Assembly (NCBI GenBank): GCA_043754515.1
Contig: JAYUUO010000122.1
Coordinates: 1-12,688 of the forward strand
Reading direction: 5' to 3'
Length of the DNA: 12,688 bases
Source: Armatimonadota bacterium
GTDB taxonomy: Bacteria > Armatimonadota > Armatimonadia > Armatimonadales > Armatimonadaceae
Below the pieces are notes generated by a model. It did not search any database, had not been told where the DNA came from, and saw nothing but the letters and a program-made list of their open reading frames with translations. Shown piece by piece: positions 2,005 through 12,688 of the stretch (within the stretch, counting starts at the first letter, position 1; every line of letters begins with the position of its first letter). Both the position numbers and the translations under genes were made by a program.

Positions 2005-2345
2005 GGAACACCTTCACAGTCGGTCCGACGGGTACGGGTCTACGACCCGAATCCACAAGGAAAGATGGCAAAGCGACCGCTGATTGTCGTGTTCGCCGAA
2101 CTCGACGACAACCCCGGCTGGCTAACCGGATGTTCGAGCGGCTTGACAAGCCGGAGCCCGCTCCCGTGTTCGTCGAACACTATCCGGATCACGGAGTACA
2201 TAACGTGCGAATGAACCGATGGCAGTTCGTCGAAGGGTTCGCGTTCGTCGGGTTCCACCGAAATGCGGCAGGAGCGTTTCAGTCTCCGAACTGGCAATAC
2301 ACTACTCGCTTAACCGTTGAAGTCGTCGCCGGGCAATCGCTCTGA
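2005..2345 (+). pseudogene. Frameshifted paralog of 873-1349
   Basis: One frame gives RVRVYDP...RPLIVVFAELDDNPGWLT (compare RVRVYRP...APLLLLCWTL). It shifts near 2128 into MFERL...VFVEHYP...RLTVEVVAGQSL (compare VSLVERF...RTVIESLVGESL). An in-frame TAG lies at 2002. Confidence 0.7.
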
Positions 2346-2376
2346 GAAACGGCATGAGTTCACTGATCCAATTCCT

Positions 2377-2409
2377 ATCCGCAGACAACATTGCTCTGCG
2401 GATTTTTTT
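2377..2409 (+). terminator. Rho-independent terminator
   Basis: ATCCGCAGA/TCTGCGGAT 9-bp stem followed by a T run. The stem resembles the one at 1524-1554. Confidence 0.8.
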
Positions 2410-2461
2410 GAAGAAAGATGGTTGGCTTGAGGATTGATGCTTGCGTCACGAAGACGACAAT

Positions 2462-3697
2462 CTACCTTAACTTAACCATGTGGTACGTAGTATTCTGTGC
2501 ATACTGATCCCAGAGGGTATGATACCTATCTTCGGTATGTGCATCGTAATAACAGTTACCGTTACTATCTAACAATACCACTATCGAGACATGGCTTAAT
2601 GTTGGATAGAAACCGATGACATCACCAACAGTCATAAACCTTCGCTGATACTCGTCAGCCTGAGACCTGTTCATTTTCTTCTTGCTCATGGAGCTACTAT
2701 AGCTGACCATGTAATCAAAAAACTCTCCCGCTCTAATCCAAGTTGTCGAATATGGTCTCCACTTATCCGTCGGAGTAATAGTTCCACCTGTATTGTCACA
2801 AACGCACTGACTGATAAAATTAGCGCAGTCCTTACCACTTCCTCCATAGCTACTGTACCGTGGATTATAGGCTTTGCAGTACATATCTGCATACTGAGCC
2901 GCCGCCTTTCTGTTATACGACCAAGGACGCTGTACTAACGACGCGTAAAGGAGATTTGCACTTTGAACGCCAGCCTGTTTTGAAAACTGTATTGTTTTCA
3001 AAAAAGTGACCGAGGACCCCCGGTCACTTTCCGTATATGAGTTGGCTTGATTCGCAACCGGGTCCATGTATGGATTGATGAATATATCGTTATCAACCTT
3101 CCAGCCAGTCTTAGAATTAAAAACAAGTCTGATGTCGTGATCAGTGGCTGAGGAGGAGTGCACAACTTCACCATCTTCTACTAGAGTTCCATCCCTTCGG
3201 GCTTCCTCAATCTGGTCTGCTTTCTCAGGAGAAATGGTCACGTTTGGGTTGCTTTTAACAGTTAGATCAACGTGTACATACTCGACACCAACAACTCTGG
3301 CAGTGTTTCCCCTAACTACCACTGATGTAACGCTGAAGTCGGAATAAGTGTGTACTACTGAAAACTCTTGATTGTGTGAAAGTACAAAATCTTTGTGAGC
3401 ATTAGCAACTTTGAGATTGTTATTTCTTGTTTTAGCGGCATTCAAAGATGAGGTCAGAGCCTGAGCATCAGTTTCCTGAGAGCGAATTGCAGAAGGTACT
3501 GAGTTATTCCCCAGATTTTCGCGGAACTGCGCGTAAAACTGGATGTAGTTTGTTGCAACACTGGCGACCGCATTGGTGTCAGCAACCTGTGTGGTCGGCT
3601 TAGGCGGCTTGGCGGTCTGTGGAATCTTTGCAAATGCAACCCCACTAAGTGCCAAAACGCTAAAAACGACTAAAAGTGTTGATTCTTTGGTATTCAT
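2462..3697 (-). CDS. Secreted protein with C-terminal putative amidase domain (Amidase_6, NlpC/P60-like)
   Basis: The likely start MNTKESTLLVVFSVLALSGVAFA is a signal peptide. The C-terminal motifs are YNRKAAAQYA, DCANFISQC, GDVI, HVSIV and YDAHTEDR. GC is visibly lower than in the neighbouring genes. Confidence 0.8.
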   Translation of the reverse strand: MNTKESTLLVVFSVLALSGVAFAKIPQTAKPPKPTTQVADTNAVASVATNYIQFYAQFRENLGNNSVPSAIRSQETDAQALTSSLNAAKTRNNNLKVANAHKDFVLSHNQEFSVVHTYSDFSVTSVVVRGNTARVVGVEYVHVDLTVKSNPNVTISPEKADQIEEARRDGTLVEDGEVVHSSSATDHDIRLVFNSKTGWKVDNDIFINPYMDPVANQANSYTESDRGSSVTFLKTIQFSKQAGVQSANLLYASLVQRPWSYNRKAAAQYADMYCKAYNPRYSSYGGSGKDCANFISQCVCDNTGGTITPTDKWRPYSTTWIRAGEFFDYMVSYSSSMSKKKMNRSQADEYQRRFMTVGDVIGFYPTLSHVSIVVLLDSNGNCYYDAHTEDRYHTLWDQYAQNTTYHMVKLR

Positions 3698-3761
3698 GAT
3701 AAGTACTTTCTTCTTACACTTCGGATGTACTTTCGTCAACTACACCCTACCTTGCTCACTC

Positions 3762-3791
3762 ATTTTACCACACACACCTTGGTTCGATGAA
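3762..3791 (-). promoter_or_regulatory. Possible sigma70 promoter for the amidase-domain gene
   Basis: Extended -10 TGgTAAAAT at 3770-3762 and a weak -35 TTCATC at 18-nt spacing. Confidence 0.35.
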
Positions 3792-3923
3792 CTTTTAATC
3801 CGCTCCCCAAAACAATACCACTGAAAGTATAAGTCAGCATCTATGAAGGAGTTGGAAATAAAAATGAACAGTTGGTTCAAAAAAGTTATTTGCAAAGTGC
3901 CTTGGATGTGGATGCGACCGAAA

Positions 3924-4029
3924 AAGGAAGTTTCTGCGACCACTCGTTAATTGTGTCGAACTAAAATTACCAAAGCACATTATCACTGTCCGAACAATTC
4001 GGTAACAACTTTTCCCCATTAAATCCACC
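3924..4029 (-). repeat. Diverged direct copy of the LSR 3' end (4209-4306)
   Basis: Block 1 has 22/29 identities (4001-4029 vs 4278-4306) and block 2 has 27/37 (3924-3960 vs 4209-4245). It encodes VDLMGKSCY...*FDTINEWSQKLP versus VDLTGKSYH...WFDTIIEWGHQIP. Confidence 0.8.
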
Positions 4030-4206
4030 CTCTATCATCACAATAAGGGGAGACGCCTGTACTCGAACGGCATCAAACCAACTTTCGATCAACTCACTAA
4101 GATCATATACCGACCGATTTCGTGTGTCGTGAGCCGAATTAAGTGTTTGTGAAAATAGTTTGAACATGGTTTCATCTGGGCTTGCAAACGAGATGCTCGA
4201 CTCTCT

Positions 4207-5823
4207 CTAAGGAATCTGATGCCCCCACTCAATAATCGTATCGAACCATGATTGATCTTTCGCTCCGTCAATATTTAGGTGATAACTTTTTCCCGTCAGG
4301 TCCACCACCTTTTCTTTGGTGTGCCTAAAGTCCTGTGAAACCCGGTATGGGAGCGTTAAATCGTAGGTGATAAGTCCCTTTTCCCGGTCGAACACCGGCG
4401 GGGTCTTGAATACCATGCGGTGTATGATGCGTTTATCCTTAGCAGAGCCGTTTTTCCATGCTTTCGCAGGCTCGGAAAAATAGGTGATAACTCTCCGCCA
4501 AGCCGCCCCGTAATCCGGGGCTTTTTCGAGGTATTTTGCCGCCTCCAACTTTGTCTTTTTTATGATTTCTTCCAGCGATTCAATCTCTGCCTCGACGTAG
4601 GGGACGACGGTATCGCTCACGCTGACGAGCCGATGCACGAGGAGCCGGAGTTGTTCCTCGTATCGCTGGATCTTGCGGGTCGCCATCACCGCTTGTGTTT
4701 CCCACTCTCCGATGTACCGCGCCCATTCGTCCTGTGAACTAATACTAATCGCCTCTATGAACGATGGGGACGGCGTGAGATGCTCGAGCAATTTGTGAAA
4801 CGCCGGTTCCACCTTAACCGCCGAGTAACTCCGCCCGTAGATCGCGCACTGCTGCCAGTAACACTGGTAACGCGGGTACTGCCCTTTGGCGAGCGAGCCG
4901 GTGAGCGGTCTGCCGCACCCGGCGCACCGCACGAAGTTTCGCAGGATGAACTGGTCATCACTGTCCGCGCGGGCGACGGCGAGGGGGCGTTCCTTCTGTC
5001 CCAGTCGCTCCAGAATCAAGCCGAATACCGCCGGGGTGATGACGCTCTCGTGCTTCGCGGGGACGCGCCCGATATCCCACGGCTTATATTCAAGGTAGCC
5101 CGCGTACAGAGGAAGCGTTTCAAAGATGCGGGCGACCCGCTTCTCCAGCACGGTGATGTGGGCGGCGTGTCGTCCGAAACCCTCGCCTCTATAAAAGCCC
5201 TGTGCCTGTAGGTAGCGGGCGACTTCGCGCTGTGTCAGGAGCCTACCCCTCGCGAACGCTTCCAGAGCCGGGGCAAGCACTGTCTTTGCCTCGCGGGACG
5301 GGACAATGACCTTCTTGTGAAAGGGATGTTTCTCATAGTGATAGCCGGGCGGTGCGGGGAACGTCCAGTAGCCCTGTTCGAGCCGCGCCCGCATCCGGTT
5401 CAGGACCTGCTCCCGGTTGCCTTTGCGACCGTATTGCGCCGCCGCGGCCATGATGTATTCGACGAACTCGCCGGAGGCGGTTTCCTCGAACCGTAGCGAA
5501 GGGGATTCGAGCCTGCCACCCGCCACCCGGATCGCGGCCCGTAGTTCGCCGTGCGCCCGCACGTCACGGGCGATGCGGGAGATGTCATCAATGATGACCA
5601 CGACCGTCTGCGCTTGGGCGGAAAGGTAGCCGAGCATGGCGAGAATGGCAGGGCGGTCGGTGATCGCGCCGGAGACGCCGTCGTCGGCGAAGACCCGTGT
5701 CACCCGGTATTCGTGGGTGTCGGCGTAAGAGCGACACCGTTGTTCCTGACTGCGAATGCCGTCTCCTTCTTTCGCCTGCCGCTCGGAGGAGACGCGGCAG
5801 TAGATAACAGCTTCCTGAGCCAT
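4207..5823 (-). CDS. Large serine recombinase (resolvase + recombinase + zinc ribbon + coiled coil)
   Basis: 538 aa. Motifs include the catalytic AVIYCRVSS, DDISRIARD, GYWTFPAPPGY, HESVIT, the zinc ribbon RCAGCG...YQC...C, and a coiled coil. Confidence 0.95.
   Translation of the reverse strand: MAQEAVIYCRVSSERQAKEGDGIRSQEQRCRSYADTHEYRVTRVFADDGVSGAITDRPAILAMLGYLSAQAQTVVVIIDDISRIARDVRAHGELRAAIRVAGGRLESPSLRFEETASGEFVEYIMAAAAQYGRKGNREQVLNRMRARLEQGYWTFPAPPGYHYEKHPFHKKVIVPSREAKTVLAPALEAFARGRLLTQREVARYLQAQGFYRGEGFGRHAAHITVLEKRVARIFETLPLYAGYLEYKPWDIGRVPAKHESVITPAVFGLILERLGQKERPLAVARADSDDQFILRNFVRCAGCGRPLTGSLAKGQYPRYQCYWQQCAIYGRSYSAVKVEPAFHKLLEHLTPSPSFIEAISISSQDEWARYIGEWETQAVMATRKIQRYEEQLRLLVHRLVSVSDTVVPYVEAEIESLEEIIKKTKLEAAKYLEKAPDYGAAWRRVITYFSEPAKAWKNGSAKDKRIIHRMVFKTPPVFDREKGLITYDLTLPYRVSQDFRHTKEKVVDLTGKSYHLNIDGAKDQSWFDTIIEWGHQIP
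4291..4307 (+). other. att-like core resembling a tRNA-Ala/tmRNA 3' end, inside the LSR gene
   Basis: TCCCGT-CAGGTCC-ACCA has the layout of a T-stem 3' strand, an acceptor strand with U70, and ACCA. No 5' half of a tRNA is present. Confidence 0.6.
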
Positions 5824-5861
5824 GATTGTTCGGTTAGCGGTAATCGGATACAGAGTAGCAG

Positions 5862-6134
5862 TTAAGTGCCCGCGAGGGGAGGCCCGTCGCTGTCACTCGC
5901 GTTGATAATGTCACCCGGCGTCGTTCCGGCACGCAGGTCGGCGAAGTAGCTATCGAATACGGTGCCGATGATTCCCAGAAGGTCGGACAGGTAGCGGTCT
6001 TGCTCCTCCGGGGTCATATGAAACCCGGCGAAGATCTCCCGGAGACGCGCTTGCGCCATCGGTGATAACCGGGAGATGGCGTCATTACCCCTTTGTGCCT
6101 TCGTCGTTTCAGGAGTCTGGGTAGGAGTTCGCAT
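5862..6134 (-). CDS. Small hypothetical protein co-oriented upstream of the LSR
   Basis: 90 aa ending 38 nt before the LSR start. The segment FHMTPEEQDRYLSDLLGIIGTVFDSYF resembles, from recall, small ORFs that precede this LSR type. Confidence 0.65.
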   Translation of the reverse strand: MRTPTQTPETTKAQRGNDAISRLSPMAQARLREIFAGFHMTPEEQDRYLSDLLGIIGTVFDSYFADLRAGTTPGDIINASDSDGPPLAGT

Positions 6135-6220
6135 AAAGCGAACCTACCGGAGGGGGTAAGGAAACGCACTGAGCGGTGCATTCGTGGATGCCGCCCCCGA
6201 TGTACCCCCACGATGAACAG

Positions 6221-6434
6221 CTATATCAATTTTTTGCGCCTCTCCTTTTTGCCCATCACGATCCCTTTGACGATTCCGACTTCGGCGTGCATGTCGCGTA
6301 TGAAGTCGGCGTCGAGTTTCGTATACATGGGTATTGTCTTCGTTTCGCGGTGGCCTGCGATCTGTTGTGCCGCAAGAAGGCTGTGCTTGGCAAGCCCGGT
6401 TCAGGCTGAATCGGCGCAAGCCGTGGAGTGTAAT
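6221..6434 (-). pseudogene. Orphan C-terminal fragment of a paralogous tyrosine integrase
   Basis: ITLHGLRRFSLNR(+1 at ~6395)LAKHSLLAAQQIAGHRETKTIPMYTKLDADFIRDMHAEVGIVKGIVMGKKERRKKLI*. It matches the last 70 aa of 6703-7704 at 38/70 positions with no gaps. Confidence 0.92.
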
Positions 6435-6540
6435 CGAGACAGCTGCTCTACCTCCTGATCCATTCCTCACATTACTCATGTTTGGTGCCAGCGTATTGAC
6501 GAACCAATTATCTAGCCGCATCCAACGCTGTACGCATCAC

Positions 6541-6571
6541 ACAAAAACGCCTCGGGATCATCTCCCGAGGC
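6541..6571 (-). terminator. Rho-independent terminator downstream of the integrase
   Basis: Minus strand GCCTCGGGA-gatga-TCCCGAGGC followed by GTTTTTGT. Confidence 0.85.
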
Positions 6572-6702
6572 ACAACAATCCAGTAGCATATTCAACGTAG
6601 TTCCACGCTCATCCACATACGCGTATGCGAAGCCTAGTATCCCTACTCACATAATGACCCAACGGCCTGAATCAGAGACTGGTCAGTTCACGTTTCTAAA
6701 AC

Positions 6703-7704
6703 CTACACGAGCCGACGACGTTTATCCCGCTTGCTTTCAATTACCTTATCCAGCACTCCTACCTCACTGTGCACATCACGCAGGAAGTCCGGATCGAGAC
6801 GGGTATACAAAAGAGTTGTCTTCGCATCCTTATGCCCAGCTATGGTTTGTGCCGCCAGTAAATTATTTTTAGCCAGTTTGTTGATGCTGTAACGGCGAAG
6901 CGAGTGGAGTGTAATTCCTTCCGAAAGACCAGCATACTTTGTGATCCGGTGAAGCGTATGGATGAATTTATGCGTGTCGATAGGACCGCCCAGTTCCGAG
7001 ACAAATAGCAATCCATCATCGGGTTTTCCAGACATGATCCGTCGCCGCATCCGCAGCCAGGTCGCGAGAGCGGACGCCCAGGCCGGAGAGACTGGGAGTG
7101 TCCGCGGTTGCCTTCCCTTCGATTCTCGTATCAAGATACGACGCTCGTCCTCTTTATAGTCTTCTACCTTCAGCGCGAGCATTTCCCCGATACGGCATGC
7201 ACTGTCGAGGAGACCGTAGAAGATAGCAGTGTTTCGGTCCCGGTGAAAAACGCGCCGGTCTACGGGCAAGAACTTCGCACCGGGGTTCTTGCGGATGTCC
7301 CAGAACTCACCCAGTGCCGTGATCAGATTTCGTACGTCGGCATCGGTCGGCATCGGACGAGCGGGACTCGGTGCGTTGCGAACCCGGTACTCGGCGAGCG
7401 GATCGCGCTGTAGCAGATCATTGGCAACGCACCAGCGAAAAAAGGATTTCGCGGTGCCTGCGCCATGAGTGACTGTTGTTGGTCGCTTCCCTTCGTTCGT
7501 CCGAAATATCAGGTAACGATTCAGGTGGCTCTTACGGAAATCGTTGAAGGCGATTCCTTCACCCTCTGCCCAGGCACGCAGGGAGCGGAGTTGGACAGAG
7601 TAAAAGATATGGGTGTTCTTGGCACGAGTCGCTTCCATATCGAGGAGGAACTCTTCTATTGCGGCGTTCCAATCGCAGGTTTGTCCGGGTAAAGCTAAGG
7701 TCAT
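6703..7704 (-). CDS. Tyrosine recombinase/integrase (XerC/D-like fold)
   Basis: 333 aa with an N-terminal core-binding region. The catalytic set is R (SACRIGE), K (SKG), HxxR (HSLRR), H (AGH) and Y (TLLY). Confidence 0.95.
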   Translation of the reverse strand: MTLALPGQTCDWNAAIEEFLLDMEATRAKNTHIFYSVQLRSLRAWAEGEGIAFNDFRKSHLNRYLIFRTNEGKRPTTVTHGAGTAKSFFRWCVANDLLQRDPLAEYRVRNAPSPARPMPTDADVRNLITALGEFWDIRKNPGAKFLPVDRRVFHRDRNTAIFYGLLDSACRIGEMLALKVEDYKEDERRILIRESKGRQPRTLPVSPAWASALATWLRMRRRIMSGKPDDGLLFVSELGGPIDTHKFIHTLHRITKYAGLSEGITLHSLRRYSINKLAKNNLLAAQTIAGHKDAKTTLLYTRLDPDFLRDVHSEVGVLDKVIESKRDKRRRLV

Positions 7705-7734
7705 ATGAGTCCGTTACAACTTTCTTCTAAAACA

Positions 7735-7763
7735 GGTTTAGCATGAGAAGCAACGGATGTCAA
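7735..7763 (-). promoter_or_regulatory. Putative sigma70 promoter of the integrase
   Basis: Perfect TTGACA (7763-7758), a 17-nt spacer ending in TGc, and -10 TAAACC (7740-7735), about 30 nt before the ATG. Confidence 0.55.
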
Positions 7764-7769
7764 CTATGG

Positions 7770-9227
7770 TCAACGGCTGTTTAAAAATCCAGATACATCC
7801 TCCTTGAGTTTTTGCAGGGAGGGACTATGGATATACATCATGTGCCCCGCCTCGTAGTAGCGCGTCGTGATCTGGGCGCGCAGGTCGGGCGGGATGTTCA
7901 TGTGCGACAGCGTGTACTCAGTGGCGAAGTAGGGCGTCGCGAGATCGTAGTAGCCGGACGCGACGAAGATGCGCAGGTGGGGATTTTTGGCCAGCGCGTC
8001 GCGCAAACCGGATGCCGTTTCGACGTATTTGTTCTGTGACTGCCAGTCCCACGGCGTGGTAATCCCGGTGCCGAGGATATGGTAGATGTCGTCGGTTTTG
8101 TAGCCGAGGCCCGTCCGAACGTAGTCGTTAAACGCCGACGTGTACGGCGGCAGAATCGCGGACATCGAAGGGTCGTAGTCGGGGGTCTCGGACGCGTTCA
8201 GCGCGTCGCGCCCGGTCAGGCGCGAGTCGAGCCGTCCCACCGTTTTGCGCTCGCGGCGGAGCAACTCTTTGCAGAAGCGGAAGATCTCCGGGCGCAGGTC
8301 GGAGTCGTCCAGGTACGTTTCGGAGAGTCCGGTCAGCCGCGCGAGTTTGGTTAGCACGCCCGCGCGCTCCGTGTCGGAAAGCCGGTCGCCTTTTTGCAGA
8401 GCGGCGGCGTACTCGCCCGCCGCGAACGATTCGGACTCGGTCAGTGTCGCAGCGAGGTCGGTTGACAGTTCCGGCGCGAGTTTGCCATGGTAAAATGCCG
8501 TCGCGGTATAAGTGGGCAGGAAGAGAGTGTACGGTAGATCGTTGCCTCGGTCGAAGTCGAGGGTCTGGAACTGCATCACGGACGACACCAGCACGATCCC
8601 GCTGAATGCGATGCCCCGGTCGGCCAGGTAGCCCGCGATGCCCGCCCCGCGCGTGGTGCCGTAGCTCTCGCCGACCAGGTAGAGCGGCGACGACCACCGC
8701 TCGTAGCGCGATAGGTACAGCCGGATGAACTCGCCGATGCTCTCGATGTCGCCGGAAACGCCCCAGAACTTCTTGCCGAGTTCGGGCTTCGTCGGGCGCG
8801 AGTAGCCGGTGCCTACGGGGTCAATAAACACGATGTCTGTGTCGGCGAGCCAGGTGTGTGGGTTGTCCTCGACCCGATACGGCGGCGCGGGGAAGTCGCC
8901 TTTTTCCCCGGCCATCGCGACGCGTTTCGGTCCCAGCGCGCCCAGATGGAGCCACACCGACGCTGACCCGGGGCCGCCGTTGAACGAGAACATGAGCGGG
9001 CGATGCTCGCCGTCCCCCGCCCCGCCCGCGATCACGGTATAGGCCATGAAGAACATGTCGGCCTCGGTCTCGCCGGACTCCGCGTTACGGATCGGGAGCG
9101 TGCCGGTGGTAACGCGGTAGTGGAGCGGTGACCCGTCCACCGTGGTCTGCTGCTCGGTGACCACGGGCGTGGGACGCGGTTCGGCGGGCTTCGGGTCGAG
9201 TGGTTTTTCGGCGGGTGTTTCGGGCAT
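7770..9227 (-). CDS. Serine carboxypeptidase, peptidase family S10
   Basis: 485 aa with FNGGPGSAS, FIDPVGTGYS, nucleophile GESYG, YYDLATP and GHMMY motifs. Confidence 0.95.
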   Translation of the reverse strand: MPETPAEKPLDPKPAEPRPTPVVTEQQTTVDGSPLHYRVTTGTLPIRNAESGETEADMFFMAYTVIAGGAGDGEHRPLMFSFNGGPGSASVWLHLGALGPKRVAMAGEKGDFPAPPYRVEDNPHTWLADTDIVFIDPVGTGYSRPTKPELGKKFWGVSGDIESIGEFIRLYLSRYERWSSPLYLVGESYGTTRGAGIAGYLADRGIAFSGIVLVSSVMQFQTLDFDRGNDLPYTLFLPTYTATAFYHGKLAPELSTDLAATLTESESFAAGEYAAALQKGDRLSDTERAGVLTKLARLTGLSETYLDDSDLRPEIFRFCKELLRRERKTVGRLDSRLTGRDALNASETPDYDPSMSAILPPYTSAFNDYVRTGLGYKTDDIYHILGTGITTPWDWQSQNKYVETASGLRDALAKNPHLRIFVASGYYDLATPYFATEYTLSHMNIPPDLRAQITTRYYEAGHMMYIHSPSLQKLKEDVSGFLNSR

Positions 9228-9274
9228 GGTTGTCTTCTATTTCAGCGCGTCGGGCGATGGCGGCGCGTATGGCG

Positions 9275-10279
9275 TTAGTTTTTTGTCTCGGGCGGGGCGA
9301 ATACCGGCGCGGCGGTGCCGCCCGGATCGCCCGACGGGAGCGGGATCACGGCGTCGAGCGGTAGCGGCTTGCCGAAGTCGGGGGTGCCGTCGGGTCGCCA
9401 GGTAAAGCGTTGCGCCCGTGCCGTCCGCGTGCGGTACGTGTAGATCGGCGTCGTTTTCGCGTGGTACACGATCCAGTCTTCGGTGCCGTCCGGCGACTTG
9501 AAGAAGCCGTTGTGGCCCGGCCCGTACACGCCGTTCTCGTCGGCGCGGACGAAGACTGGCTCCGGATGCTGCTTCCAGCTGGCGGGGTCGAGCAGATCCG
9601 CCGTTTCGCTCGCGATCAGCATACCCAGTTTGTAGTTCGGCTTCGCGGTGTCGCAGATCGAGTAGATGAGGAACACCTGGCCCTGACGCACCAACGTGAC
9701 GGGACCTTCGCGCACCTCGGAACAGCCGAAACCGTCCGCTTCGAGCAACACGCGCGAGCCGCGCGTCGTCCAAGGGTTCTCCATATCCGCGATAAAAATC
9801 CGGTGGTCCGGGTGCCCCGCCCACAGGAAGTGCATCCGCCCGTCCGGGAGGCGCAGTACGCTGGCGTCAATCGCGTACAGCGCGTTGCAGTGGTCAGTAG
9901 CGAGTCGCCCCTTGTAGACATACGGCCCCATCGGCGTGTCGCTTGTGCTTTCGAGGACGTGACAGCGGTGATTTATATGCCAGCCGTCCGACGCGCAGTA
10001 GTAAAGGTACCAGCGTTCACGCCCGTCCGGCCCGGCGAGCCGGTACATCTCCGGTGCCCACATCTCGCCCCATCGCGTCGCCGCATCATCCTGCCAGACG
10101 GTTATCGCCTCGGCGTCGTACAGGTCAACGAGGCTAGCGGCGCGGCGGATCGCGATCCGGGGACCACCGGTGCAGGTGAAGTAGTAGTAGCCGTCGTGGT
10201 ACGAAATCCATGGGTCCGCGCTGTCGGGGGCGAGCGGGTTGTGGAACACGTCGTGTCGTGGTTGCGAGCTGTCGGTCAT
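9275..10279 (-). CDS. Glycoside hydrolase family 43 (arabinofuranosidase/xylosidase-like)
   Basis: 334 aa with ADPWI, WAPE, AIDAS, EGP and GPGHNGFFKSPDGTEDWIVYHA motifs. No signal peptide is evident. Confidence 0.93.
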   Translation of the reverse strand: MTDSSQPRHDVFHNPLAPDSADPWISYHDGYYYFTCTGGPRIAIRRAASLVDLYDAEAITVWQDDAATRWGEMWAPEMYRLAGPDGRERWYLYYCASDGWHINHRCHVLESTSDTPMGPYVYKGRLATDHCNALYAIDASVLRLPDGRMHFLWAGHPDHRIFIADMENPWTTRGSRVLLEADGFGCSEVREGPVTLVRQGQVFLIYSICDTAKPNYKLGMLIASETADLLDPASWKQHPEPVFVRADENGVYGPGHNGFFKSPDGTEDWIVYHAKTTPIYTYRTRTARAQRFTWRPDGTPDFGKPLPLDAVIPLPSGDPGGTAAPVFAPPETKN

Positions 10280-10457
10280 GGGTATTGGGCGTTTTCCGGT
10301 CGGGCGGGTGCGGATGAGTTCGGCGCGAAAGGTTACGCGGGCGATTCGAGCGTCGCGCGGTCGCGGTTAACTATTCGCCGCGCCACGCCGGGGTTCCTGC
10401 CGCCGTGACCGCGCGACGCTCAGATCGCCCGCGTAACCTTTCGCGCCGGAACACGTC

Positions 10458-10760
10458 ATTATCGGTAATAACGTTAAGCATCACAAACTCGCCAAATATA
10501 TACCCTTCGCTGGGATCTGCCTGGCCCTAACCGGGACTCTGTTCGCCCACGCGCGGTATGCGGACGATACCAGCCCGGCGCAGACGCTAGCCGCCGACGG
10601 TTTGATTACGGTAGGCGCCCGTGCTATCGTCAGCGGCGACACGGCGTATGTCCTCGGTCGCGCCGAGACCGTCGCCGACTTCACGCGGCTGGATCAAATC
10701 GTCCCATCGCCCGACAGCGGCGGGGGGGGCTGTGCGGATAGATTGGAGGTCGCGCCCTAG
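10458..10760 (+). CDS. Possible secreted protein or gene remnant without a canonical start
   Basis: The open frame reads IIGNNVKHHKLAKYIPFAGICLALTGTLFAHA-RYADD..., which is signal-peptide-like. There is no upstream ATG/GTG/TTG, but an ATT at 10458 follows GGA. Confidence 0.4.
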   Translation: MIGNNVKHHKLAKYIPFAGICLALTGTLFAHARYADDTSPAQTLAADGLITVGARAIVSGDTAYVLGRAETVADFTRLDQIVPSPDSGGGGCADRLEVAP

Positions 10761-10934
10761 CCCCCCTCTCCTGTTGCGCTGGGAGAGGGGGGGGAACTCT
10801 GCTCGCTTGCTGAGGAGGGGCGGTGCTGTTTGTCGTTGCGCGGTGGAGGGGGAGCAGGCAATGAATTGTTCCGCTCCCCCTCCACCGCAAGCGTATCGCC
10901 CGCACCCTACCGCGCGTGGATTCCCCCTCTCCCC
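10761..10934. repeat. Cluster of GC-rich REP-like palindromes
   Basis: CCCCCCTCTCC...GGAGAGGGGGG (10761-10792), a perfect 16-bp inverted repeat GCGGTGGAGGGGGAGC/GCTCCCCCTCCACCGC (10840-10855/10873-10888), and a lone half-site CCCCTCTCCCC (10924-10934). Confidence 0.75.
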
Positions 10935-11558
10935 ATGGCATATGGCGCACTTGCACTGCTGGATCACCTGAAACCGGACGCGGTATTGTTTATTGACGGC
11001 GGCGTAGACAGCCTGATGCGCGGCGACGAATCCGAAGTTGGGACGCTGTTCGAGGATGTGGTTTCGCTCGCCGCCGTGTCGCAACTGCCCGCTTCCCTCC
11101 CCCGCTACCTCGCGTACCTCGGGATGGGCGTGGAAGATGACATCGCCTACGCGAGCGTCTGGGAGAATATCGCCGCGCTCGCCGGGACGGGCGGCTTCCT
11201 CGGCGGATGCGCACTCACCGCCGAAATGGCGGCGTACGGTGCGTACGAGAACGCCGTGAATTATGTCCATGCGCAGAAGCATCAGCAACCGAGCGTCATC
11301 AACTCGTCCATCGTCTCGGCGGTGCGCGGGCATTATGGCGACTACCACGCGCCGGAACGGACGAAAAACAGTCGCCTCCATATCTCGCCGCTGATGTCGC
11401 TCTACTGGTTTTTTGATCTGCCCGCCGTCGCGCAACGCTCTCTGATCGTCCCGCGACTCATCTCCACCGGGACGCGACGCGAGGCACTGGAACGGCTCGC
11501 GCTAACCCGCGCCCTCGCACAGTCGCGGCGCGGCGGCGTAACACCTCGGCCCACCTAA
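10935..11558 (+). pseudogene. DUF1152-like protein lacking its N-terminal part
   Basis: DAVLFIDGGVDSLMRGDE.EVGT..ED..SLAAV, ENIAAL...GGFLG, SVINSSIVSAVRGHYGDYH and ISPLMSLYWFFDL are present. The expected N-terminal GxGGGxD motif is absent, and the upstream sequence is the repeat cluster. Confidence 0.65.
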
Positions 11559-12340
11559 CGAAGCGAAAACGCGAACGGGAGCAGTTCGGCGATGTCGCTC
11601 TCGCGAACCACCGCGCCCGCCCTATCCACCAGCACCACCCGGAGCAGCGACCCGTCGCGCGGCGCGAACTCGGACAGCACCTGCCGGCACGCCCCGCACG
11701 GCGAGCCGCCGTCATCTGTCGCCACCGCGACTCCGGTTATGACGCGCTCCCCCGCCGCGACCGCAGTGAAAACCGCCGTTCGCTCGGCGCAGTTACACAA
11801 ACCGTACGACGCGTTCTCGACGTTGCATCCGCCGTACATAGTGCCTGACCCCGCGCGAACCGCCGCGCCGACCGCATACTTCGAGTAGGGCGCGTAGGCG
11901 GCATCGCGCATCTGGACGGCGAGCGCGATCAGTTCGGCATCACCTGCGGCGGCTTCGGTCATTGATGTGGGTTCGGCGGTCGTTTCCGCCCCGTGCGTCG
12001 GTTTCCCCTCGGACCCGGCCTGCAACTCGTCGCGCAATTTCATTAGCAGTTTTCCCAATTCGTTCCGACCGCGCCACCCGCCCATCCCCGCGTCGCGCAC
12101 CATGCCCCACGTCGTGTCGCGCCACGAGTTCCCCTCGATCAGCGGGCGGTCACCGGTCGCCAGCAGTTTACCCCGTAGCACGGGATCCGCGAACTTCGCC
12201 CGGAGTACCTGCTCCATCACGGCGAACCGCTTCGTCTCCCAGTCGTCGCGCAGGGCTACCCGCTTGCCCTTCTGCTTCGCGGACGCGAGAGTGGGCGCGT
12301 CGCGCACGGCGTATCGCTCCGTCGTTTCCCGCGTCTTCAT
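11555..12340 (-). CDS. cdd: NADAR (YbiA-like) C-terminal part fused to cytidine deaminase
   Basis: NADAR motifs are DWE, KF, LLATGDRPLIEGN, DTTWG and GRNELGKLLMKLR. Cytidine deaminase motifs are AYAPYS, NVENASYGL, CAERTA and PCGACRQVL. A ~25-aa linker joins them in one frame. Confidence 0.88.
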   Translation of the reverse strand: MKTRETTERYAVRDAPTLASAKQKGKRVALRDDWETKRFAVMEQVLRAKFADPVLRGKLLATGDRPLIEGNSWRDTTWGMVRDAGMGGWRGRNELGKLLMKLRDELQAGSEGKPTHGAETTAEPTSMTEAAAGDAELIALAVQMRDAAYAPYSKYAVGAAVRAGSGTMYGGCNVENASYGLCNCAERTAVFTAVAAGERVITGVAVATDDGGSPCGACRQVLSEFAPRDGSLLRVVLVDRAGAVVRESDIAELLPFAFSLR

Positions 12341-12473
12341 CGCCTAGAACGCGTGTTCGGTGGTCGGGTTAGGTGATCCCCTCCAGCGCGACGGGCGCGG
12401 GGAAGAAGTTAGACAGGAAGTCCCACTCGCCCCGGAAAGCGTCAATCGCCGCCCCAGGCTTTGTCGAACTCAT
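12341..12473 (-). pseudogene. Disrupted NADAR N-terminus belonging to 11555-12340
   Basis: MSSTK...FRGEWDFLSNFFPAPVALEGIT-Y-PTTEHAF-*-AMK. Restoring it needs removal of one extra base (12369/12370) and reading TAG (12346-12344) as CAG, which gives EHAFQAMK. Confidence 0.85.
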
Positions 12474-12688
12474 GCGCGGGAGCGCCAGCGGCGTCGGCCA
12501 CGGGGCGGCTATCACCCGGCGTCGCGGTGGTGTAAACGGGTTTCTTTTTTGCCCATAAAGCAAATACTGACGCGGCGATGCCCGACGCGGATAGGAGTTA
12601 CGCGGTTGGCGGTTTCGGATGCCCGGATCTGTCCGTCCCACCCGCAAGCGGGTACCCGACGTCCGGCTACGAAGTAGTCTGGACAGGC

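Follow-up and report, generated by a model that had tools for sequence, protein, structure and literature searches.

In Myxococcus phage Mx8, attP lies inside the integrase gene and insertion changes the C-terminus of the enzyme, a tyrosine integrase with a single site. Among large serine recombinases (LSRs), a comparable arrangement is described for the Dehalococcoides ssrA islands, in which the 3′ end of the gene for the serine recombinase DsiB (~540 aa) overlaps att and islands stand in tandem, 15 of them without the integration module (McMurdie et al. 2011, PMC3146451, as far as the accessible text extends). In the same part of that article, the authors suggest that a full-length dsiB exists only in the circle or where a neighboring island supplies the 3′ fragment (PMC3146451). 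Decayed elements termed CIMEs keep their att sites and pile up as new elements insert at the same site; most of the examples in the accessible sections of one review use tyrosine integrases, and both of their att ends are recognizable (PMC5704250). For serine integrases such as LI/A118 and Bxb1, an attP/attB outer-motif spacing rule predicts a 5-nt shift between the two sites, and the sections of that source consulted do not present the att sites as encoding part of the enzyme (PMC3783163). No report of LSRs with attP in the gene at tRNA or tmRNA was found beyond Dehalococcoides in the main text of openly accessible papers, and the TIGER/Islander announcement is silent on them.

The locus described here lies in a stretch of 12,688 nt (the window) from an Armatimonadota bacterium and contains an LSR gene that, like the Mx8 integrase gene, holds attP. 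It resembles the Dehalococcoides ssrA islands in a recombinase of ~540 aa, a 3′ end overlapping att and tandem stacking. The array of DsiB islands is attached to ssrA, has 20-bp repeats and carries a module of six genes, whereas the window has a 5- to 7-nt core, no RNA gene as anchor (neither the window nor the neighboring contig C81 has the tRNA or tmRNA gene that ends a DsiB-like island or array), gene-less stubs and arms from two LSR families, the whole being cargo of a tyrosine-recombinase island. None of the DsiA, RecF, ParB or Mom families of the integration module was found beside the LSR when the 14 window open reading frames (ORFs) were compared with Pfam, and no orphan arm scoring above 13 marks a far end upstream of the LSR in 60 kb. 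Unlike the CIMEs in the review sections cited (PMC5704250), the window keeps only right arms, each of which is also a protein tail. The LSR shares with LI/A118 and Bxb1 integrases its fold, catalytic and zinc-ribbon domains, short core and a 5-bp attP/attB outer-motif shift; it differs from their description in the consulted part of PMC3783163 in that attP encodes a linker-plus-helix tail. Stacked att arms are already published for the Dehalococcoides ssrA islands, and by analogy the window is a variant in a different setting. On the best reading the feature is mostly a relic, a stacked scar of known kind in an unusual setting, and such a stack has little consequence by itself.

The LSR gene (4207..5823, minus strand) is intact and encodes 538 aa, with attP within its 3′ end. 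Residues 5 to 152 match the catalytic domain PF00239 (E = 6e-24), the match to PF13408 (E = 4e-5) falls just below the cutoff (24.4 versus 25.3), and PF07508 has no match in the protein. S12 and R10, which mark an N-terminal resolvase catalytic domain with a serine nucleophile, and C300, C303, C321 and C326 are unchanged across 112 aligned proteins. The AlphaFold model (pLDDT 90) has long helices at 353 to 432, and its top Foldseek match is Bxb1 (E = 1e-15); together with the invariant cysteines, these features show the recombinase, zinc-ribbon and coiled-coil domains that define the LSR class. Upstream lies a small conserved ORF of 90 aa (5862..6134, minus strand), helical and without a Pfam family. 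With an iterated profile, 110 of the 149 related loci having candidate ORFs showed a relative at the same upstream position, the partner in locus L023 matched with E = 6e-6, and the best match in the ESM Atlas (0.79) was among hypothetical proteins only. Its position makes it a candidate directionality factor. A promoter scan gave 2 promoters against 1.6 expected, and the same scan found no terminator.

The intact attP (4278..4340, minus strand) has its left arm in the LSR body, its core, TGGTGGA, at 4307-4301 and its right-arm outer motif at 4286-4279. Under a matrix built from 13 arms that adjoin LSRs at other loci, one of them from the genus of the host, it is the best site in the whole 5.1-Mb genome (34.5), and it is 87% identical to an orphan copy on contig C149. 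The right side of attP encodes tail 1, the last 32 codons (4207..4305, minus strand), which is predicted to consist of a flexible linker (pLDDT below 50 at residues 504-519) and a C-terminal helix (526-536). The same tail type ends 48 of the 50 proteins of this branch and also occurs at orphan island ends. Because the far island ends of relatives carry this tail, 4307 is an unrecombined attP and tail 1 is its right side; we infer the crossover position from paired ends of those relatives. A preliminary description had proposed that the last 32 LSR codons start at a tRNA-like motif, that the att site lies inside the gene and that the tail forms a conserved module on the attP side; the starting point is as described, and homologous loci support the rest. 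The likeness of the 16-nt motif to a tRNA 3′ end holds near related LSRs, where it reaches 15/16 with tRNA-Ala (L063) and tRNA-Arg (L026), and fails in the host itself, where no tRNA or tmRNA called in the genome ends in the proposed 17-nt core and the best agreement is 12/16; the host tmRNA, on contig C234, has a free 3′ end. When positions 3780-4340 were compared with 401 genomes of the phylum, a convincing match was obtained only for the tail-1 region, in G002 and G012, with four weak matches besides. Among 71 genomes of the order the arm pattern occurred only in the host (G000) and G002, and viral contigs gave no exact match to either arm pattern.

The homologue search returned 149 proteins, of which 120 were listed; among the matches listed, distant homologues mostly end in tRNA or tmRNA antisense words and close ones in a tail like that of the window. 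Of 170 related loci, some of which represent the same organism twice, 13 had no matched 3′ end. In 80 of the remaining 157 an RNA gene lies at the core on the opposite strand (47 tRNA and 33 tmRNA); another 31 offer too little flanking sequence, and in the other 46 no RNA gene was called at the core. The core shared by paired ends is only (TG)GTGGA in L124, L046, L096, L071 and L023 and is longer in L066 and L074; the core of 16 to 17 nt given in the preliminary description thus shrinks to a true core of 5 to 7 nt. The outer motif of tail arms stands 5 nt further out than that of tRNA arms (score 0.485 at offset 5 versus 0.429 at offset 4; 20 tail and 75 tRNA arms), the shift that the spacing rule predicts in the portion of PMC3783163 available. 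Given this attP/attB spacing and the short core, the target need not match the 17-nt string. Applied to the 170 loci, the matrix turned up 43 additional arms, spread over 37 loci; 41 lie on the LSR strand and 39 upstream at 3.0 to 9.3 kb; among 35 distinct orphan arms, 34 keep an open frame of at least 20 codons and 30 keep the aromatic pair. These upstream orphan arms are the far ends of small islands. Rfam searches of the window, L192, L007, L101 and L006 gave one chance match only; most of the calls that ARAGORN made with relaxed settings in six long stretches were doubtful, the sole credible one being a tRNA-Asn in G061 beside a different LSR. A scan of genome contigs with the single LSR protein returned 17 stretches, none of which was confirmed. 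Together, the matrix and the 5- to 7-nt core supply paired attP/attB candidates for a large LSR family targeting tRNA and tmRNA 3′ ends. The annotated proteins of integrated copies lack the native tail, which is relevant to anyone mining LSRs as tools.

The second copy begins 277 nt downstream, as had been described, and the reported identities of 22/29 and 27/37 nt are exact. It comprises core 2 with an orphan attP right arm (4001..4030, minus strand), sharing GGTGGA with core 1, followed by tail 2 (3925..4028, minus strand). The two cores have these six bases in common in direct orientation and nothing to the left of the core, where core 2 lacks LSR sequence. The arm at 4030 scores 20.8, third in the genome after 4307 and the C149 copy (31.4) and ahead of the next match at 19.5. 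Strict blastn for extra tails missed this copy, and Smith-Waterman alignment and the matrix were used instead. Local alignment of the tail-1 region with the second copy scored 98, which none of 2,000 dinucleotide shuffles reached (mean, 37.1; standard deviation, 6.1; maximum, 66). The two tails are 62% alike, and tails of separate elements are 55 to 65% alike; because its identity falls within that range, tail 2 is not a recent copy of tail 1. Alignment with the three other tails (window, C149 and G002) shows that 8 extra nt near 3982-3975 put tail 2 out of frame, and on the preferred reading it is dead sequence. The interpretation of the second copy as a stacked att-plus-tail relic, with a frameshifted tail, was sound in the preliminary description. 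The wobble-position differences reported there amount to a weak bias: third positions hold 8 of the 17 mismatches, and of the changed codons 5 are synonymous and 8 nonsynonymous. Conservation as protein holds for the tail family-wide. Similarity past the tails is marginal, its score of 38.5 being reached by 43 of 1,000 shuffles, so the two whole tandem units of ~280 bp proposed earlier are not established; the AT-rich spacer (3750..3924, minus strand) carries at most a faint echo of 4200-4030.

Between the two copies lies a third arm, absent from the preliminary description: the orphaned attP right arm of an LSR from a second family (4158..4186, minus strand), with a decayed core and an open tail frame running on to 3967. 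Positions 4182-4158 are identical in 25/25 nt to the att junction of an LSR of a different family on contig C259, and the alignment of this arm with that junction (score, 58.5) was matched by 0 of 1,000 shuffles. LSRs related to the one on C259 terminate either in tRNA antisense sequence or with a similar tail. Three right arms are therefore stacked at 4307, 4186 and 4030, and two enzyme families contributed them. All three are in direct orientation, a left arm is unrecognizable at 4030 or 4186, and the units are gene-less; between 4307 and 4030 there are tail frames only and no gene with a family, unlike the gene cassettes of integrons. In the C259 region (G000:C259:4125-7339), a tRNA-Thr-like fragment and a tyrosine recombinase accompany the second-family LSR, which has an intact attP-type tail.

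Extra tails, which the preliminary description had suggested counting downstream of the LSR in homologous loci, do occur in such loci, for example in L023, L122, L130 and L238. In L023 (the same as L102), the LSR is followed by cores at steps of 711, 691, 216 and 1,299 bp, with at most one gene in each, ending at tmRNA. L122 (172-3883) has four tail arms 1,063, 656 and 1,992 bp apart with one or two genes between them, at the far end of a tmRNA island, and L130 has two arms. L238, from the phylum of the window, carries a second intact tail 10.4 kb downstream (2188-12636), with caspase-helicase, TIR-NACHT and other cargo between the tails; no tRNA was called on the 20 kb fetched, and the contig stops 2.2 kb past the second arm. 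In 637 kb around attP-form LSRs and two sister contigs, an extra downstream arm occurred in 3 of 24 stretches (the window, L238 and L023). At L192, a non-tRNA arm has attB-like spacing, with debris of another LSR directly behind the core; as a conserved attB, this downstream arm was found only in its own genome among 32. The segment between LSR and tmRNA in L023 (9488-12800) is integron-like in appearance, with four small cassettes and the same terminator-like hairpin before two junctions, and a terminator-like hairpin also stands ahead of the second core in L238. An Armatimonadota element module of YdjM, an Mrr-like nuclease, an HTH protein, a RepO-like protein and DUF932 recurs near these LSRs (L191, L194, L022, L041 and L238).

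The window probably holds a decayed scar of tandem accretion, produced by repeated insertion at a tRNA/tmRNA-type site, later deletion and subsequent movement as cargo. The LSR would have come from one of a family of small islands that use tRNA or tmRNA 3′ ends as insertion sites and carry attP in the last recombinase codons. Insertion would split the gene at the 5- to 7-nt core, the body then reading into the RNA gene antisense and the enzyme's own tail being left at the far end of the island. A later element at the same place would join the older LSR to the newcomer's tail, and tails would pile up downstream, an architecture seen in relatives, with the order of events deduced. The window would be such a pile in worn form: a complete attP giving the LSR its full tail, plus two orphan right arms whose cargo and left arms were deleted. 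This pile would have lost its RNA gene anchor and now be cargo in a 44-kb island; the LSR may still insert its circle at a tRNA/tmRNA-type attB. We infer the anchor rather than see it, because the 60-kb stretch of C81 and the window contig (C122) has no tRNA, tmRNA or tRNA-type arm (best score, 12.6, versus 17 to 30 at real sites). The lack of an orphan arm upstream of the LSR within the island and the rarity of extra downstream arms in the branch (3 of 24 stretches) also weigh against accretion. Alternatively, the 277-bp unit (tail A plus arm B) might have been duplicated locally in tandem long ago, with no recombinase involved in making the second copy, and have decayed since. Such a duplication would fit the end-to-end alignment over ~240 nt, the faint echo of arm B after tail 2 (43 of 1,000 shuffles) and the membership of both tails in one subtype. 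It is nevertheless unlikely: the two tails resemble each other no more than do those of separate elements, and similarity starts exactly at the core, as at the recombination junctions of relatives. The model of the preliminary description, in which the cores recombine, 277 bp is excised and the tail is swapped to tune activity or directionality, draws on the 6-nt core in direct orientation at both sites, on conservation of the tail as protein across the family and on excision by attP × attP recombination in cis, reported for some enzymes in the consulted part of PMC3783163. However, both right arms are attP type, a pairing that most serine integrases do not recombine according to the same part of that source, core 2 has no LSR-like left arm, and excision would leave a frameshifted gene without the conserved helix. 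Sister loci have no alternative intact tails at short spacing, and the predicted 4306-4029 joint, marking the 277-bp excision, is absent from the contigs of four DNA runs of one study, two of them possibly the source of the window assembly; this is weak evidence, as assembled contigs drop rare variants. With two attP-type arms, a frameshifted product and no joint, a regulated tail swap between cores 1 and 2 is unlikely, and the model as a whole is highly improbable.

The distribution of tails across the family bears on a further reading. A FastTree phylogeny was built from 112 of the 120 listed proteins, 8 truncated or C-terminally aberrant ones being omitted; tails were kept out of the alignment and labeled by regular expression (two by hand), and the tree was midpoint rooted. 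Its two groups (SH-like support, 98) comprise 50 rows, 48 of which have attP tails, and 62 rows, of which 54 have tRNA tails and 2 attP tails; the named members of the attP-keeping group are largely Armatimonadota. In two complete genomes, sister LSRs lie 0.7 and 1.6 Mb from tmRNA with element genes on both flanks, and for five tmRNA loci the 1.5 kb fetched contained no LSR. By itself, accretion at an RNA gene accounts neither for these distances nor for the attP form of 48 of 50 proteins. The branch might instead have left tRNA targeting and stopped inserting itself, a resident LSR using its in-gene attP to capture circles that each carry an attP arm and a tail, so that the gene stays whole and older tails are pushed downstream as in an integron; the window would then contain a collapsed array of such an "integron" run by a serine recombinase, in which the C-terminal helix would act as a switch confining the enzyme's activity to the attP form. 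Incoming circles would bring a fresh arm and tail, keeping the enzyme complete while cargo, such as the defence-like genes of L238, and old tails stack behind it. Besides the attP tail in 48 of 50 branch proteins versus 2 of 62 on the other side, such capture would agree with the 10.4 kb of cargo between two intact tails in L238 and no tRNA called on its 20 kb, the bare attP without an LSR body on C149, the LSR debris behind the core in L192 and the intramolecular attP × attP recombination that the accessible text of PMC3783163 gives for LI/A118 and Ccr enzymes. Yet extra arms occur in only 3 of 24 stretches, one of which (L023) is anchored at tmRNA; the window units hold no gene; an RNA anchor may lie beyond the second arm of L238, 2.2 kb past which the contig ends; and integration between molecules by attP × attP is only at background level in that same text (PMC3783163). 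Capture by a resident enzyme thus appears quite doubtful, and accretion followed by decay is preferred for the window. The unrecombined attP of this branch, distant from RNA genes, raises a question that can be tested: whether the LSR is a passenger, a second integrase or a cassette-capturing enzyme.

The island that carries the stack is bounded by 13-bp direct repeats, one at 7831..7843 (plus strand), inside the 3′-terminal part of an S10 peptidase gene, and the other, its twin, at C81:10769-10781; together they enclose 44,430 bp of lower GC, and the window overlaps the C81 end by 98 nt. Beyond the C81 copy lies the displaced original end of the peptidase gene, and comparison of window positions 7770-7843 with G000:C81:10700-10781 indicates that the island gives the peptidase a near-identical replacement C-terminus. 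A tyrosine recombinase gene (6703..7704, minus strand; PF00589, E = 5e-22) lies 66 nt from the peptidase stop and, by its position and the 13-bp repeat, is likely the integrase of the island, in which the LSR is a passenger. Of a second tyrosine recombinase gene the broken 3′ end is present (6137..6434, minus strand), 91% identical to the end of the C149 tyrosine recombinase, and the first cargo gene past the stack encodes an Amidase_6 protein (2462..3739, minus strand; PF12671, E = 9e-28; GC, 0.43). G001 has the same island edge with the start of the recombinase broken. The assembly branches at 7831-7860, and read depth in run X1 is 16.6 on island contigs and 26.5 on the flank, with similar ratios in runs X2 to X4, a weak hint that part of the population may be without the island. 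A sister island at tRNA-Lys (C149:7750-9162) has a tyrosine recombinase followed by a bare attP and tail with ~41 nt of LSR left arm, and lacks both the LSR body and the partner ORF; the 4329-6137 joint in the run contigs is the C149 form. Several other features of the genome were noted. A 46-bp inverted repeat (93%) and an element of ~100 bp, present on more than 25 contigs and REP- or MITE-like, occur at window positions 10321-10448 and 12590-12688. Contig C219 of the host (3,158 bp) is an array of 14 tRNA genes, several of them atypical, and window positions 11555-12340 encode a NADAR domain fused to cytidine deaminase.
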